A stretch of DNA of 64,000 nucleotides, from the NCBI GenBank assembly GCA_025336725.1, contig GCA_025336725.1_3647.1; one strand, written 5' to 3'. Each line of letters begins with the position of its first letter. Positions within the stretch are counted from its first letter, which is position 1. This DNA comes from Escherichia coli (GTDB lineage Bacteria; Pseudomonadota; Gammaproteobacteria; Enterobacterales; Enterobacteriaceae). A program made the position numbers and the translations under genes. This document shows, one piece after another, positions 10,441 to 60,002 of this stretch. Under the pieces are notes generated by a model. That model did not search any database. It saw only the letters and a list, made by a program, of their open reading frames with translations, and was not told the DNA's origin.

Positions 10441-11583
10441 TTAGATAAAACGCTTGAACATAGAGGGTGATGAGATTGATGGAATCACACAAGGCAGCGC
10501 TACCTCCTCTTTCTCCAGGAAATTAATCGCAGAAGCTACACAGTCGGCCCAGTCGTCTTTTCTGTTAAATGTTGATCTTTCCCCGTTGAATTTTTCAAGT
10601 TCAGTCAGAAATGCTTCCAGAGTATCAGGATGAAAACTGGATTTTACAATCCTCACCATCCCTTGTTGGGCAAGATTGGCAAAAGGTGAGAACCTTGTCA
10701 GTTTAGATTTGTTGGAAGGCATTGGGTCTTCTTCAACCCTGAACCCTTCGGCGAGCAAGGATCTGGATGAGGTTAAGAACTCACTCTTACCTGCCTGACC
10801 AGGGTCCACAGAAAATACGATTATGCAATCATCTCCATCAAACTGCGCCTGTTTTCTGATGATCACATCTCGTTCCCCAGCCTTTTTACAGAACTTGCCT
10901 TCCAGACCTGTGGAATACCTCCCGTCATCCACGTTCTCAGGACAATAGTCCCCAGATAGGTAATAAAAGCCGTCGCTATCTTTACTTACCTTAACACTGG
11001 CGGTAAAGTCAGGAAATTTATTACCGGAAGTTCTCTCGGTTCCTGCCTTATCCCATGCCCTGCAAGATACTGATCCAAGAGGTACTCTATCGGCATCACG
11101 AAGGAAAGATCTTTGGAAATAGTTTGCACCCTCAGGTTTGGCAAACCAGTTGCCATGAAGAAGCTGGGCTTTTTCCAGCTCTGGCAGACCTTCAAGGAAA
11201 GCAAGGTATTCTGGGTTGTCTCTCAGGCATACAGGATTATCGAAAATTGTTGCGCCTATAAACGAGAATGACAACGGTCTTGGCTTGATTTCCACACCTA
11301 GTCCATTGACCGTAGTGTATTTCTCTATTAACTCCTCTTTAGAGTCTCCCCAGATAAACTCACCGTCGCGTCGGATAAAATATCTTTTCTTACCACATTT
11401 CTCCGGATCTGGATACCCTTCATCGTCCAACCACCACCTAACCAGTTTGGCAAGCATGTGTTCTGAGTCGGGGTTACAACTGATAACCATTCTTGATGGA
11501 TACTTTGACTGAGATCGCAGACGAGACATCAAATAGTCTATCTGCTCCCATTCGAATTGCGTGCCTTCATCGAAGCAAACCAT
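10441..11583 (-). CDS. terL: Large terminase, Walker B and nuclease segment
   Basis: Begins MVCFDEGTQF (Walker B hhhhDE); same frame as 11611..11988, separated from it by a single TAA at 11608-11610. Confidence 0.75.
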   Translation of the reverse strand: MVCFDEGTQFEWEQIDYLMSRLRSQSKYPSRMVISCNPDSEHMLAKLVRWWLDDEGYPDPEKCGKKRYFIRRDGEFIWGDSKEELIEKYTTVNGLGVEIKPRPLSFSFIGATIFDNPVCLRDNPEYLAFLEGLPELEKAQLLHGNWFAKPEGANYFQRSFLRDADRVPLGSVSCRAWDKAGTERTSGNKFPDFTASVKVSKDSDGFYYLSGDYCPENVDDGRYSTGLEGKFCKKAGERDVIIRKQAQFDGDDCIIVFSVDPGQAGKSEFLTSSRSLLAEGFRVEEDPMPSNKSKLTRFSPFANLAQQGMVRIVKSSFHPDTLEAFLTELEKFNGERSTFNRKDDWADCVASAINFLEKEEVALPCVIPSISSPSMFKRFI

Positions 11584-11610
11584 GGTGTATTCAAGTCCTT
11601 GATGGTTAGT

Positions 11611-11988
11611 TTATCTTGGACATACTCCATGTGGCAGTATTTTACAACGGCCTCCTTTTTTGCTCCTGTCCCACTTGCCAGTGCTCGGATCAAACCGTGG
11701 AAAAATAAACTTATGATCCTTCTCTCTGAACTTTGGTTTAATGTTTTCAGGCAGATCACTGTAAATAGCTACTGCTTTAGGCCATAGCCCACCCTCACCT
11801 TCCAACTGTGGAGTTGTTCTTCGGAACATAACCACAGAGCTGTGTGGGTCATCAATAATTTTAAGTGGCATTAGCTGCAAGAGGAACGACTTGCCAGAAC
11901 CGGCTGCACCTCCGATCACCAAAATATCTGCATCGTTCTCAAGGATCATCTTCTGCTTTTCAGAACACGGTCCGTAAATCTTAGACAT
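11611..11988 (-). CDS. terL: Large terminase, N-terminal ATPase segment
   Basis: Walker A GGAAGSGKS; ends at an in-frame TAA 8 codons before the downstream segment. Confidence 0.75.
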   Translation of the reverse strand: MSKIYGPCSEKQKMILENDADILVIGGAAGSGKSFLLQLMPLKIIDDPHSSVVMFRRTTPQLEGEGGLWPKAVAIYSDLPENIKPKFREKDHKFIFPRFDPSTGKWDRSKKGGRCKILPHGVCPR

Positions 11989-12275
11989 TAACCTCTCTCC
12001 TTTGGAAACAGTGTTCTTATATAGTCTTGCAAAATGATCAATTTAGCTCTATCATTACTACAAGACAGGTTATTATCCCTCATAATGCCAGAATTCACCG
12101 CATCTGGCGCACCTTTCTTCAAAGGGATAGCTTTAGCAGGTGGTTTCATAGCACCCTCGGGAGGTTTAACAATCAACCTTCCTACATCAGGAGGGTCAAT
12201 CTTATATTCTTTTTCGACACTTGTCGCACATCCGCACAGCAGTAAGCAAGCAACTAACAATACGGTGGCTCTCAT
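11988..12275 (-). CDS. o-spanin (outer-membrane lipoprotein, Rz1-like)
   Basis: 95 aa; signal peptide with lipobox-like LLLCGC; Pro-rich; 4-nt overlap with upstream i-spanin. Confidence 0.5.
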   Translation of the reverse strand: MRATVLLVACLLLCGCATSVEKEYKIDPPDVGRLIVKPPEGAMKPPAKAIPLKKGAPDAVNSGIMRDNNLSCSNDRAKLIILQDYIRTLFPKERG

Positions 12276-12670
12276 CTACCCTCCTGATTTATACTCTCAT
12301 TATAAATCTCTATAAGCTGATCAGGGAGTGTTGACTTCTTACCCTCAGGAGACTGGAGGTAAATAATCTGCTTTTCTTTACCTGCCTTCTCAGCTATACT
12401 TAATTTATCCTGCAGGTCAGAAAGGGATTTTTCAAGGTTTTTAACCTCCTCTGCGTGACCCATTTTAATCCTGTCCGCTTGCTTTTGTTGCTGATCAAGG
12501 ATCCGTTCCCACTTCAACTCTGTTGCTGTCACACCTTCCTGGTAAGCAGTGTCAAGCTTAGAATTAAACCAATATACGGCACCAAGATAGGCTATACCAA
12601 GAGTTGCTGCAAAAACTAAACCTTTTATGACCCCTTTATACCTGCCCAGTCCTGTTAAAACTGAAATCAT
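12272..12670 (-). CDS. i-spanin (Rz-like)
   Basis: N-terminal transmembrane helix then coiled coil; start refined to the Met preceded by GGAG (track ORF extends to 12706). Confidence 0.5.
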   Translation of the reverse strand: MISVLTGLGRYKGVIKGLVFAATLGIAYLGAVYWFNSKLDTAYQEGVTATELKWERILDQQQKQADRIKMGHAEEVKNLEKSLSDLQDKLSIAEKAGKEKQIIYLQSPEGKKSTLPDQLIEIYNESINQEGR

Positions 12671-12775
12671 TTTACGGCTCCAGAAACGAAAAAACCCCGC
12701 AGCCATACAGCTAACGGGGCGGGTTAAAATTGAGTAACCTAAATAGATCGAAACTAACTAAAAGGAGACTAATAC

Positions 12776-14187: not shown

Positions 14188-14288
14188 CNNNNNNNNNNNN
14201 NNNNNNNNNNNNNNNNNNNNNNNNNNNNNNNNNNNNNNNNNNNNNNNNNNNNNNNNNNNNNNNNNNNNNNNNNNNNNNNNNNNNNNNN
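14188..14288. other. Assembly gap (run of N)
   Basis: About 100 consecutive N characters in the sequence. Confidence 0.95.
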
Positions 14289-15499: not shown

Positions 15500-15770
15500 G
15501 AGCGATTTAGAGGCCTTCTTGCCAGTTTCCACACATAAACTTTAAACAAACTCGCGCGGGAGACTCTCAACCGACTCCTTACGGCGCTTGCAAGCTTTCG
15601 TCGGCGGTCCACATTAGTGCTCGGCCTTTGGCCTGCGCTATAGCTTCGCTACCACACATGTGAACAGTCATGCATGTATGCACGCCTGTTATTGTGTGCA
15701 CTATGGAGGCCCGGCATCTCGCCCCTCATAGGCGAGTGCCAATGAAGGGCCGACACTATACCAGTAAGTA
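15500..15770. other. GC-rich, ORF-free, hairpin-dense segment (candidate structured RNA/leader)
   Basis: Multiple stems, e.g. GGCCC-GGCA-CTCGCC-loop-GGCGAG-TGCC-GGGCC (15708-15751), GGCC-ttt-GGCC, GCTTGCAAGC; no ORF of 60 aa or more. Confidence 0.3.
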
Positions 15771-15896
15771 ATAAATTTAAAACATAATACTTTAGATCTA
15801 GTATATTCTACATAAGTTAAGTATATGTACTTTAGTACCATAAGTACTAGATCTTTTATTTTTTATTATTTAGTTATTTTAGTTATATTCTTTATG

Positions 15897-15977
15897 TGTC
15901 CGTATCACGGACAGTTAGTGTCCGTATTACGGACAGATGTGTCCGCGTGGCGGACAGTAGTGTCCGTCTCACGGACA
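15897..15977. promoter_or_regulatory. Array of four palindromic operator-like sites TGTCCG-N5-CGGACA
   Basis: Perfect 6-bp inverted arms at ~15897, 15919, 15940, 15961 (21-22 bp phasing), intergenic. Confidence 0.6.
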
Positions 15978-16052
15978 GTTGGTAATCTTTGTGCTGTTGT
16001 GGACATAAAACATACATACCTTTATAATACAAATATTTAAGTTTTTACTGGT

Positions 16053-16403
16053 CTAACCAGTTGTCGACATGTGAATCACTTCTTCTGGTGGTAAAACTTT
16101 AGAAAATGTGCATCTTTTCCCTCTCCCTTGTGTGGAAGTTTCAACTATCCCAGCACACTCTAAAGTTCTAACGCATTCTGCTGCTTTCGTTTTCTTAATC
16201 CCTGTATCAGCTGCAATTTTCCTTGTGCTTGGTGTGAATCGTGAATTTCCTCCAAGCTTATACCAGTTGTGCAGATAGCAGTATACTACCTTGTCATACA
16301 GATCAAGAATAACCACCTCTCCTGTTGTAGTATTCAAAACTTTCGACAGAGAAAGTATCCCAAGCGGGACTTTAAGATAGGGCAGCTTATCCTCATCTTT
16401 CAT
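16053..16403 (-). CDS. Small DNA-binding-like protein (possible winged helix)
   Basis: 116-aa track ORF; segment RKIAADTGIKKTKAAECVRTLECAGIV resembles an HTH; adjacent to the palindrome array. Confidence 0.3.
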   Translation of the reverse strand: MKDEDKLPYLKVPLGILSLSKVLNTTTGEVVILDLYDKVVYCYLHNWYKLGGNSRFTPSTRKIAADTGIKKTKAAECVRTLECAGIVETSTQGRGKRCTFSKVLPPEEVIHMSTTG

Positions 16404-56427: not shown

Positions 56428-56821
56428 CCACACATCGTTTGGAGAATATGGAATACACAATTAAAACATTGTCAGAGGTTTTGGTGGTGATCCTGATGAT
56501 CATCACGTCCATAGCGGCTGTTGCCGGAATACTAACGGGTGGAACATGACCAACACACATGCATCTGAAGAGACATCTGAAGAAGTGACCGTAGAGGAAA
56601 ACTTAGACCCTGAGGCTGATGACCTGACGTGGGAAGACATCTTAGACATCTGGTTCTCTATCCTGCCTGAGCACGAAGAGTTCAGAGGTGGCAGACTATG
56701 AAGCACCGAGCCCACATAAGTTTATCATGCTAAAGCATGGCCTGAAGAGGCAAACGTATATAAATTCCTGCGCATTGGAACGTATAACCCTGTTCACACT
56801 CTCATTCCCAGAGGAGATTTC

Positions 56822-57037
56822 ATGAAGATAGAAATATTTGGTGGAGCTGACAACACTCGTGGCCTGATTTACCTTGAATTTGATGAATCTTACCTCCCAG
56901 AGGTGTTAAACATGGACGCTATTGCAGAATCCCTTAATGTAGACCCTAAAGATCTCTACTCAGGTGCTGAAATTGATGGTTGGGAAGAGACTATGAACAT
57001 TGATTTCAGTGAATCAGGTGATGAACCTCTGGACTGA
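56822..57037 (+). CDS. Small acidic hypothetical protein (MKIEIF-type)
   Basis: 71-aa track ORF, last plus-strand gene before the ORF-poor region. Confidence 0.35.
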   Translation: MKIEIFGGADNTRGLIYLEFDESYLPEVLNMDAIAESLNVDPKDLYSGAEIDGWEETMNIDFSESGDEPLD

Positions 57038-57385
57038 CACACAATTAGCTGCTCAGCTAAGGTTCTGTAGGCACCTATAACATCTTCCAACTAAATTTCC
57101 TACCAACACAGTTACTTACCTACCACACATGACTGTTTGCTTGTTTAGTGAGCAGTCATCCCTTGACATTCTTGCCTATCATGATAAAATTAAGTTCTTC
57201 TCTTTTCTTTTACCGAGTAATTCGGGTTTTCTGTTCTCTTCGGTTTGAAGGGGTATGGAGATACACCTGAGTGAACAGGGTGAACAACCGAACATTTGGC
57301 TATGGCATTAGCATGGCGAAGCGGACGGGTGACGAAAGAGGGGCCGGAGGACACCAGTCACTGCCATATAGTATATGGGTGATAA

Positions 57386-57927
57386 CCTGAAGAGTCTGAA
57401 TAAGTGTTTAAGTACCAGTCAGAGGAAAGGGTGAATGGTAGACGAAGGGGGAGGGGGGTTTCTTATATCTTTAATTTGTATACTTTATATACACTTGTAA
57501 ACCAATTCAATTGTAATTTGTTTACCACACAAAGTGGATAGAGACAAATATCACCTATTAAACTTGAATTATTTATAGAAAATACCACAACACCTCTTAA
57601 GTCTTTGATTTTACACACAAATCTTACAAATATCCTACCTCCATATTTAACATACTTGTAACATACTCCATATCCTACCTGCCTGATCAATTTTACTCCC
57701 ATCACATCCCCACATTCCCCTGTCTGTATTACTCCCCGCCCCGCTTGGGAGTCCTGTCATATCTGGCTTTCCGGCAAATATCACACCCACAAATATCATC
57801 ACCTGAAGAGGGTTTCATCCCATAGTATATACCTTGCCTGAAGAGCGCTTCATACACCACCTAAATTTTTTAATTGACCCCTCCCCGCCGCCGGAGAGGT
57901 TGGCTTTTCCCACACAGGCCTGAAGAG
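57386..57927 (+). repeat. Four same-strand copies of CCTGAAGAG
   Basis: Copies at ~57386, 57802, 57837, 57919; two preceded by ATAGTATAT. Confidence 0.5.
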
Positions 57928-58464
57928 TCAGCCAGAAATATCTCAAGGGGTCCGGTTATGCCACGATTCTGTGCTTGTCCTACAGGAGTGCTGCCCTGTC
58001 AGGAGCCGGTAGCGACTGGAGTGCTGCCAGGCGGACGGAATGGGAATACTTCTCATTCTTATAACGATTCTCAAATATCATGGCAGTGAGGCAAATTAAT
58101 AGGCCAGGCCGTTCACACAGTGGCACAACATTTGCAACCTATCTTGGGTGGGGGAATGAGAATACCTATCATTGTGAGAATAGTTATCATTACGGGCAAT
58201 TTAACATAATACCCATTATGCGCACCACTGGCGATACATACAGGGATTGATAACATGTGACACTGTTTACGCATATAACAATTGCATTTCTTACTATTTG
58301 TGGGGGATATAGTTAGCAGCCAATAGATTAGATATTAACCTGCAGCTATCCAGCCATTTAGACGTCTAAACGCCCACACAACAAGGATTATACATACATT
58401 CCTGAATGTAAACAGGGCCGCAAAAATGCTACCATACCAGATTGTAAATTTTTCATGCAGCACT

Positions 58465-58560
58465 TGACAAAGAGGAGAAAAACTTGTCTGACATGCTGTG
58501 ACATAATGGTGACATACTGGGCATGCTGTGACACAACTGACACGATTGACATAATTGACA
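58465..58560 (+). repeat. Phased array of TGACA(T) motifs
   Basis: Eight TGACA at ~58465, 58489, 58499, 58510, 58529, 58538, 58547, 58556; last four 9 bp apart; GCATGCTGTGACA occurs twice. Confidence 0.5.
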
Positions 58561-58683
58561 TGCATGACTGTTTACGCTCTCACTATTCCCGCTATTACTA
58601 TTCACTCCCTTTACTGTTTACATTTCCAATAATCTACATGCATAATAGTTTACATAGCTAACTATTTACACAGAGATGATAAG

Positions 58684-58924
58684 CCATGACATTCGTTTGC
58701 ATGACAATAATCACACTGATTATAATTAGCATGACATAATATAAAAGCAGGGCAACTATTAGAAGATCTATAGTTGCCTTGCTTATTATGTCATGATTAA
58801 CTGAATATAAGGCAACTATGATCTGATTAATAGTTTGCAGACAAACTATCACGGGGGTGATGGTTACTGCTTTTATATTATGTCGCGACTCCGTCGCGCC
58901 ATGCCATTCGTTTGCATAGTTGCC
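58684..58924. repeat. Direct repeat plus long imperfect palindrome
   Basis: CCATG(A/C)CATTCGTTTGCAT at ~58684 and ~58899; inverted arms CATGACATAATA...GGCAACTAT / ATAGTTGCC...ATTATGTCATG about an AGATCT centre (~58730-58795). Confidence 0.5.
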
Positions 58925-59530
58925 TTATTGTTACAGGTAAAACAATTGCATTGTTAATTGTTTCTTATCTTTTTCTTAGTCATCTAATGATTTCAGTCAG
59001 GACAGTAATGTACAGTAACCATTAGACGACTAAAGATTTCTCTGTTTATGATAACTCACCGTGATAATTTCGGACGGTTTACGAAAAATGTTGACACCCT
59101 GGCTGATTTATGTTATGCAGTTTACACGAATAATTATTTTATGCAGGTATTGACTATTCCGTTATTCTGTGGTTGGAATAAATACTTAGCAGGCTATAGA
59201 ATGGTGAACGTACGTAAATTCTGAGATTTGGCGGCTATAGTTATACTCGATTTTTCACGTAGAACACGGCTTTGTGGTTGTGTAAGTGTATGACTTATAA
59301 AGATTTTTAGTTATTGACAAGATATTGAAGATGTGCATCAGGTTAAATTTTGTGCAATAGCGGCATTACGTGCAATTTTGGGAGAGAAAACGGGTAAAAA
59401 TGGCATTGCTACCACATAATGAAAGATTATGCAATAGTTATTTTATATGTATATTTGTACAGTGTGCGGGATTGATGGCTCGTCAATTATTCCACTTGCC
59501 AGGCGGGGCCGTTGTGGTAGGAAGAGAGCA

Positions 59531-59559
59531 GACAAAAAGAAAGGGGCTTAGTGGGCCCC
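59531..59559 (-). terminator. Intrinsic terminator for the minus-strand block
   Basis: Minus-strand GGGGC-ccactaa-GCCCC followed by TTTCTTTTTGT. Confidence 0.45.
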
Positions 59560-59714
59560 TTGATAATTCAGTTAAAAAATTATAATGATTCGTATATTTC
59601 AAAAATCCGATTTGCCAGGCGTCGTTACGGAATCTAAATTTTTCTTCACGTTTGATCATAAGATCTTTATAGCCGTATTTCCTTAAGCACTTCATTAACT
59701 TTATGGCGGCATAC

Positions 59715-60002
59715 TTACATTATCTTGAGCGTCACCAATAAACTTGTTGCTATGTGGTGCATTGCTTTAATTTCTTCTTCCAGGACCAGGGCAACTACGC
59801 GGACCGGATCAAGCTGATATGCGGTAACATCAATGCGGCATTGTAGACGGCTTTTAACGTCTGCCACCGGATATACTGCAACCTCTTCCCCGTCAACATT
59901 GACGATAATTAGTTTACCATCGATTTCGAATCCTTTCGCCGCCGGACCGTGACAAAAAGCGTTATCAAAACTGTATGCCGGATTATCAGATTCAATGTTC
60001 AT
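59715..60002 (-). CDS. Hypothetical protein
   Basis: 95-aa track ORF. Confidence 0.3.
   Translation of the reverse strand: MNIESDNPAYSFDNAFCHGPAAKGFEIDGKLIIVNVDGEEVAVYPVADVKSRLQCRIDVTAYQLDPVRVVALVLEEEIKAMHHIATSLLVTLKIM

Follow-up and report, generated by a model that had tools for sequence, protein, structure and literature searches.

A phased TGACA array abutting the terminal repeat of an rV5-like Escherichia coli phage: a probable DNA-end or packaging element

Introduction

A 64-kb stretch of DNA from an Escherichia coli phage, referred to here as the window, carries a dense, same-strand cluster of the pentamer TGACA in a zone that contains no genes. Helically phased direct repeats of this kind raise the question of whether the locus serves replication or packaging. 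An earlier note on this DNA had offered both answers, namely iterons or a binding site (pac) for a terminase small subunit. We asked which of these readings the sequence of the locus and of its relatives supports.

Packaging with exact ends, delimited by a direct terminal repeat (DTR), is common in therapeutic and model phages, and its DNA signals have been detailed in almost none beyond T7 and T3. In T7, completion of the left repeat is not fully understood (PMC3350473). The paper describing rV5 draws the zone considered here as 'non-coding', notes a change of skew at the same zone, and never uses the word 'repeat' (PMC3606486). A literature search for a prior account of the array in rV5-like phages found nothing usable.

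Results

The window and its gene-free zone

We assign the window by sequence identity to an rV5-like E. coli phage of the genus Vequintavirus, and about 120 rV5-like phages of that genus match the region at 88-93% identity. A minus-strand structural module encoding the major capsid protein, portal, protease, and a split T4-type large terminase is followed by a long plus-strand block. A gene-free zone of 2.4 kb (about 57040-59480) separates this block from small minus-strand genes that start beyond it. Terminator-like hairpins on both strands bracket the part of this zone that holds the arrays described below, and no conserved ORF lies inside. The first minus-strand gene past the zone (59483-60002) is apparently split into a 95-aa ORF and a 70-aa ORF, while its intact homologues are 139 aa long (rv5_gp159, Murica gp151). 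The N-terminal 83 aa of this gene are approximately 90% identical to an end-proximal gene of Phapecoctavirus, which belongs to a different subfamily, and this likeness suggests that end-region modules have been exchanged.

The large terminase is of the T4 type (Terminase_6N/6C), and the phage that carries it is a 137-kb myovirus. Within the window the gene is divided between an ORF at 10441-11583, corresponding to profile positions 267-621, and an ORF at 11611-11988, corresponding to positions 147-241; this division fits the introns that have been reported in the rV5 terminase. The N-terminal part of the protein was not found in the window's terminase region (10441-12706), and no small terminase was identified among the ORFs beside the large-terminase exons. 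Likewise, the seven ORFs flanking the non-coding zone, considered as possible neighbouring DNA-binding proteins, gave no Pfam match. Two Rz-like spanin ORFs lie directly upstream of the large terminase (11988-12706), and a run of 100 N at 14189-14288, i.e., a scaffold gap, falls in the region upstream of the large-terminase exons.

A non-random cluster of TGACA

On the plus strand, TGACA starts at 58465 and at the seven perfect unit starts of Array A (Table 1), which amounts to eight same-strand copies in 96 bp (58465-58560), and the last four (58529, 58538, 58547, and 58556) are spaced 9 bp apart. Both the eight motifs within ~95 bp and the 9-bp steps of the last four had been pointed out in the earlier note and are borne out. 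That note had also described a longer unit as duplicated, which holds for an exact 12-mer, CATGCTGTGACA, with copies 30 bp apart, but fails for the 13-mer as it was quoted, the first copy of which reads ACATGCTGTGACA rather than GCATG…. We found that eight copies of TGACA in 96 bp form the top cluster among all 5-mers of the window, the runner-up having 5, and that the maximum 5-mer cluster across 100 simulated first-order Markov sequences of 64 kb was 4. Under a Poisson model 0.165 copies of TGACA are expected per 92 bp, giving P(>=8) of approximately 1e-11, or approximately 1.5e-6 once multiplied by all positions and both strands. Tandem Repeats Finder returned periods of 9, 11, and 18 at the array. 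The TGACA motif cluster is real.

The copy at 58465 stands outside the tandem array, 24 bp upstream of it, within a conserved TTGACAAAGAGG element of the DTR. The array proper (Array A) comprises seven perfect units and one degenerate unit (GCATG, at 58521), and it contains no GATC site. The window has seven occurrences of the extended motif TGACAYAMT. Five fall in 58499-58793, including an inverted pair at 58732/58793 that lies 170-230 bp from the array and flanks a hairpin. Within 1-90 kb of the Gotham genome the motif occurs only at 460, the boundary position, and at 658. Its near confinement to the end region argues for a site-specific signal and not for a dispersed promoter or operator word.

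Table 1. Coordinates of sequence features within the 64-kb window.
Feature	Position	Strand	Remarks
Candidate lambda-like replication origin	15770-16403		Four 21-22-bp repeats, AT block, winged-helix gene
CCTGAAGAG, four copies, right-end unique DNA	57386, 57802, 57837, 57919 (57386-57927)	+	Repeated motif
AAATATCA, three copies, right-end unique DNA	57546, 57776, 57791	+	Fourth copy inside the DTR at 58073
GGAGTGCTGCC, two copies	57985, 58018 (57985-58029)	+	Second copy stops one base before the left DTR boundary
Direct terminal repeat (DTR), 459 bp	58030-58488		Single copy in the window; placed by homology to relatives with mapped ends
Conserved terminal 25 bp of the DTR, TTGACAAAGAGGAGAAAAACTTGTC	58464-58488	+	Nearly invariant in 22 Vequintavirus genomes
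Array A, head-to-tail TGACAYAMT	58489-58564	+	Unit starts 58489, 58499, 58510, (58521, degenerate), 58529, 58538, 58547, 58556
Array B, seven ACTRTTYAC-like units	58567-58669	+	Unit starts 58567, 58582, 58597, 58613, 58629, 58645, 58661
Palindrome-rich block	58683-58928		Direct and inverted repeats, hairpin

The array directly abuts the terminal repeat

The boundaries of the DTR were transferred to the window by homology from relatives (Gotham, HdK5, and others). The repeat_region annotated in Gotham at 1-459 and 136567-137025 matches the DTR of the window base for base, and the right end of Gotham terminates at …AAAAACTTGTC. HdK5, which comes from another laboratory, has a 459-nt prefix equal to its suffix, with identical first and last bases and the ending …CTTGTC, and approximately nine additional records begin or stop at exactly the same points. 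Published values for the exact DTR length in Vequintavirus are 459 bp (PMC7471380) and 458 bp (PMC6563267). The left edge of the DTR, by this homology, would correspond to the physical left genome end and the right edge to the physical right end. The window thus presents as a collapsed concatemer-type junction in which right-end unique DNA, one DTR copy, and left-end unique DNA follow one another.

In the window, base +1 after the DTR is the first base of the tandem array (…AAAAACTTGTC/TGACAT…, the slash marking the boundary), and the right boundary of the DTR is the predicted terminase cut site in the concatemer. The conserved terminal 25 bp of the DTR hold the first TGACA together with a GACAA…TTGTC inverted repeat and, joined to the next five bases, give a small palindrome (TGTC/T/GACA) that spans the cut. 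No matching TGACA array was found at the opposite (left) edge of the DTR, where the repeated words are different ones (CCTGAAGAG, AAATATCA, and GGAGTGCTGCC). Inside the DTR, the near-palindromic GAATGAGAATA-N-TTATCATT is found twice in tandem at 58157-58191 and once more, in a weaker form, at 58041, and CAAATATCATG lies at 58072. Both are conserved within the DTRs of three genera and are plausible candidates for conserved terminase-recognition elements. A leftward promoter in the DTR (TTGTCA-18-TACAAT) seemed conserved in KPP-1 and was rejected, the critical last -10 base being T in the window, G in Gotham, and A in KPP-1.

Copy number varies among Vequintavirus genomes while the core word is retained

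We compared the locus across 22 Vequintavirus genomes, which are not independent of one another and of which two, L005 and L028 (both 137,418 bp), may be duplicates of one sequence. Hardly any variation is seen over the last 25-28 bp of the DTR in this sample, and the first five bases after the DTR are TGACA in 22/22. Perfect units, with the consensus TGACAYAMT and in a single orientation, number 1-8 per genome, and the window with its seven is second only to BP9. Spacings between units of 9, 10, and 11 bp occur in 11, 15, and 11 cases, respectively, with a mean of 10.0 bp, and larger gaps are multiples that hold decayed units (e.g., AGACA and GCACA). Overall, approximately 30% of Array A units are degenerate. 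Together with isim and SophiaRose, in which a single perfect unit is found, this indicates that multiple copies are not essential. Fourteen unit types all read TGACA-Y-A-M-T with tails that vary in length and sequence, an invariance scored on units picked for a perfect core and hence no clean test of selection.

The identity of the DTR averages 93.5% across the 22 genomes, whereas the distance from its boundary to a conserved anchor beyond both arrays ranges from 101 to 232 bp. This range of spans between conserved anchors indicates that the region evolves by gain and loss of whole units, with the core word retained. Wider sampling for the boundary word covered three loci from IMG/VR and two from metagenomes, one spurious, and a blastn search for more distant DTR homologues returned only Vequintaviruses, at 90-95% identity. 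An array that abuts the DTR boundary is, on these comparisons, well supported as a conserved yet variable feature of the genus.

A second array and a palindrome-rich block follow

Array B comes directly after Array A with a regular period of 15-16 bp, and its copy count differs between genomes. Five of the window's eight exact ACTRTTYAC matches fall within 58262-58669. At the equivalent place Schickermooser carries an array of 16-bp period built from another word (TAATTATT). Downstream of Array B lies a block rich in palindromes, in which GCCATGNCATTCGTTTGCAT is directly repeated at 58683 and 58898 (215 bp apart), TGACATAAT forms an inverted pair at 58732 (+) and 58793 (-), and GGCAACTAT occurs four times in both orientations. 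The block also contains a perfect 18-nt inverted repeat (58733-58750/58867-58884) and a terminator-like hairpin on the minus strand (58745-58784), and Murica has a minus-strand terminator annotated at the homologous place. This block may be part of the same element as the arrays.

Related genera share the end motifs and lack the array

We next considered two related genera, represented by KPP-1 (Mydovirus), for which PhageTerm gave a DTR of 514 bp (PMC9862379), and by Schickermooser (Phapecoctavirus), for which we derived a DTR of 329 bp from the record. Several motifs are common to these two phages and the window. RGTGCT lies 0-4 nt outside the left cut in all three, AAGAG…A(A/C)TTG (also written AAGAG…AACTTGY) lies just inside the right cut, and CAAATATCATG and GAATGAGAAT…ATCATT lie within the DTR. 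Forms akin to TTGACAAAGAGGAGAAAAACTTGTC are found at the same place, as TTGACAAGGAGAGAGAATTGTGTT in KPP-1 and as …TTTAAGAGAACTTGCT in Schickermooser, and AAATATCA recurs just outside and inside the DTRs of both. No tandem TGACA array was found in KPP-1 or Schickermooser. Since the DTR architecture and its motifs are present in both genera without the array, the array cannot be the core recognition element. The conserved recognition signals probably lie in the DTR or at its edges, and the array appears to be a genus-specific elaboration of the word that follows the boundary.

The two other lineages each repeat their own word close to the boundary. In KPP-1 the first post-boundary word, TAGCAAT, occurs three times within 250 bp and nowhere else in the 4.5-kb locus, and in Schickermooser CAACATT recurs 21 bp on as TAACATT. 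These words, which were picked post hoc, give a weak hint that the post-boundary word may be recognised in each lineage.

A separate candidate for the replication origin

The window contains a candidate for a lambda-like replication origin far from the array. Four tandem palindromic units of 21-22 bp (GTGTCCGTATCACGGACAGTT) at 15896-15983 abut an AT block (15770-15895) that, with 83% AT, is the most AT-rich of the window. The repeats sit just downstream of an ORF of 116 aa on the minus strand (16053-16403) that encodes a winged-helix protein with Pfam matches to HTH_36 and DUF6945 and a PHROG match to 'replication initiation protein' (E = 1e-71). This is the only initiator-like winged-helix gene that we found, and it adjoins its own repeat array. 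The 15.8-16.4 kb block is conserved in all 119 Vequintavirus records matched, some of which label the protein a transcriptional regulator.

Discussion

A probable role in DNA ends or packaging

Our data indicate that the array is probably a DNA-end or packaging element rather than a replication origin. Of the earlier note's suggestion of a terminase small-subunit (pac) site, the link to packaging stands, given that the array sits at base +1 after the DTR, while a headful pac site does not, given that the ends are exact. We rejected a pac site of the P22/SPP1/P1 type because the ends of relatives are fixed at identical nucleotides in independent records.

The closest analogue among known systems is the CCTAAAG array of T7. 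By inspection of the T7 sequence, CCTAAAG occurs at 175, 188, 213, 226, 239, 293, 306, and 332, after the 160-bp terminal repeat, with four further copies just left of the right-end repeat and four inside the repeat. The arrays of short repeats that flank the 160-bp terminal repetition were reportedly named SRL and SRR by Dunn and Studier in 1983. In both phages the genome ends in a short direct terminal repeat with exact boundaries. Each has a short core (7 bp in CCTAAAG, 5-9 bp in TGACAYAMT) arrayed on one strand of the unique DNA immediately to the right of the left-end repeat, in a gene-free zone, with a putative function in packaging. The two arrays have no sequence homology, and they differ in layout. 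The T7 array has eight copies in about 160 bp, mostly in 13-bp steps, whereas the TGACA units follow each other at 9-11 bp. The T7 heptamer stands on both sides of the repeat and inside it; TGACA, by contrast, is arrayed on one side only and has one copy within the DTR. The T7 array begins 15 nt past the boundary, and the array described here begins at +1. The phages themselves are also unlike, one being a T7-like podovirus and the other an unrelated 137-kb myovirus with a T4-type large terminase.

Short motifs beside a terminase cut are found in other phages as well. The P1 pac site has seven TGATCA/G hexamers flanking the cut, pacL and pacR of SPP1 and the R sites of lambda cosB are comparable, and in all three phages the motif copies form a binding platform for the terminase small subunit. 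The array resembles these sites in having several copies of a short motif beside the cut, with a binding role that is putative here. It differs in the type of end, since P1 and SPP1 package by headful and lambda has cohesive ends, whereas the present phage has exact direct repeats. The Dam control known for P1 would not apply, because the array has no GATC.

We propose that the array is an accessory protein-binding platform for left-end formation and packaging, a reading to which we give a probability of roughly 0.4. We infer its binding and role from its position, its phasing, a conserved motif with varying copy number, its restriction to the locus, and the T7 analogy. Against this reading stand the genomes with a single perfect unit, the two related genera that have no array, the lack of a matching array at the left DTR edge, and the failure to identify a small terminase or a DNA-binding protein among the neighbouring ORFs. 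The array would be a cis-acting element of the concatemer junction and not a gene, an RNA, or an origin. Replicating DNA would contain one 459-bp repeat between neighbouring genomes. The packaging enzyme would cut both edges of the repeat, and the repeat would be duplicated, as in T7, so that each virion DNA carries a copy at either end. The right-hand cut would fall at …AAAAACTTGTC^TGACAT…, where the first TGACA unit forms half of the palindrome over the cut, and the later TGACAYAMT units, spaced at 9-11 bp, would repeat the recognition motif on approximately the same face of the helix. A phage DNA-binding protein (the small terminase or an accessory factor in end processing) could dock on this series of units and, once bound, would help to position or stimulate cutting and completion of the left end. 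The boundary copy alone would be indispensable, the other copies would tune efficiency, and they would expand and contract through replication slippage. A stricter variant, in which the array is a loading or measuring site that directs the right-hand cut of the T4-type terminase and in which copy number tunes packaging efficiency, seems doubtful to us.

Alternative explanations

The main rival to the accessory platform is that the cut-site motif seeded a satellite that is largely neutral. On this account only the boundary TGACA(Y) would matter for cutting, and the further copies would arise by slippage or template switching at a site that is repeatedly nicked and extended during duplication of the terminal repeat, persisting without function. 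The range of 1-8 copies among genomes whose DTRs are about 93% identical, the decay of units to AGACA, GCACA, AAACA, and AGACT, and the lack of the array in two related genera with the same end architecture all fit such an origin, and some GenBank records annotate the array merely as a generic repeat_region. Yet the fourteen unit types keep TGACA-Y-A-M-T while their tails vary, the spacing is held at 9-11 bp, and slippage leaves unexplained the inverted 9-mer pair at 58732/58793, which stands 170-230 bp off. Furthermore, lytic phage genomes usually lose non-functional DNA quickly. We therefore consider a neutral satellite rather unlikely, though it is the explanation against which the accessory platform has chiefly to be measured. 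Less credible is a cluster of host sigma-70 promoters, in which TGACAYAAT would be an extended -10 (TG-n-CAYAAT) and TTGACA or GTGACA a -35, recruiting RNA polymerase at the incoming left end for a short rightward RNA or as a polymerase sink. A GTGACA-16-CATAAT site with an upstream TG (10/12) can indeed be read at 58528-58555, the T equivalent to -7 is the best-conserved tail position (38/46 contexts), and the T7 record annotates host promoters in its post-repeat array, among them A0, which points leftward, at 224. Five of the seven units in the window fit an extended -10 with TGn, A at 2, and T at 6 (CATGCT, CATAAT twice, CATACT, and CACGAT), but the invariant A and C at the -13/-12 equivalents are not sigma-70 preferences and remain unexplained by this fit. 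The motif is unused at other promoters in the about 150 kb examined, and promoter-like sites in the region number 12 against 9.7 +/- 3.1 in shuffles, i.e., no enrichment. No conserved plus-strand ORF and no Rfam family lie downstream, and rightward transcription would collide head-on with the minus-strand early genes. Altogether a promoter cluster is improbable.

The iteron reading of the earlier note, in which the array would be part of a replication origin bound by a phage initiator, is disfavoured and in our judgement very improbable. It draws on direct, phased repeats in a 2.4-kb gene-free zone with a sign change of the GC skew, and on the units of Array B, which loosely resemble what we take to be weak DnaA boxes (7/9 to TTATNCACA, our own reading of the sequence). 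The skew changes sign, however, where the genes switch orientation. The array shares with the iterons of lambda-type origins the occurrence of direct repeats in non-coding DNA and differs from them in unit length and spacing, and it has neither an AT-rich block nor an initiator gene beside it. Its units are 9-11 bp long, whereas units of about 20 bp (17-22 bp) with about two helical turns between them are expected. The AT content rises from 57% in Array A to 66% in Array B and 71% over the following 70 bp, and no unwinding block is present, and the flanking ORFs have no Pfam matches. The block at 15.8-16.4 kb is a much better candidate for the origin. A further reading takes the units as transcription-factor sites, e.g., for host PhoB, since the complement TGTCA is the core of the Pho box at about one helical turn and the minus strand reads TGTCA-N4-6-TGTCA. 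Pho boxes are direct repeats of CTGTCAT-N4 with a period of 11 bp, whereas the array shows 11-bp spacing in just 11/37 adjacent pairs and has R, not C, immediately 5' to TGTCA. Moreover, the critical final T of the downstream putative leftward promoter (TTGTCA-18-TACAAT) is missing in Gotham (TACAAG) and KPP-1 (TACAAA), and we regard PhoB sites as the least probable of the explanations considered, with hardly any chance of being correct.

Several other candidates were rejected. Both strands have ORFs running through the array, and small CDSs are annotated there in some records, but the array length varies in all three classes modulo 3 among the 22 genomes, which excludes coding. A structured RNA was discarded because Rfam at E <= 1 gave no match in 56500-60000. 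A Chi-like reading (CTGGTG), type I restriction sites, and Dam sites were checked by eye, and none matched.

Implications

A strongly non-random, lineage-specific array is now pinned to the nucleotide at which the terminal repeat ends, neighbouring motifs common to three genera have been identified, and the end region has been separated from the likely replication origin. If the stricter variant, a loading or measuring site, is correct, Vequintaviruses would provide a natural allelic series of 1-8 units with which DNA recognition in exact-end (DTR) packaging could be dissected. The locus suggests concrete and cheap constructs with which the making of exact ends by a T4-type terminase could be tested. 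For annotators, it offers a guide to where rV5-like genomes should start.

Two further observations concern the same region. A near-consensus sigma-70 promoter-like site with an upstream TG (TTGACA-16-TAAAAT, 11/12) lies at 57163-57190, followed by a small hairpin (57213-57225) and by approximately 250 nt of purine-rich sequence that ends in GGGGGGTTTCTT (to 57465). The stretch 57163-57465 has no Rfam match and may be a small RNA. Finally, eighteen GenBank records of the MG0656xx series, titled 'UNVERIFIED Campylobacter phage' (e.g., L015), are approximately 90% identical across the region and are classified as Vequintavirus, and they look like records with mislabelled hosts or contaminants.
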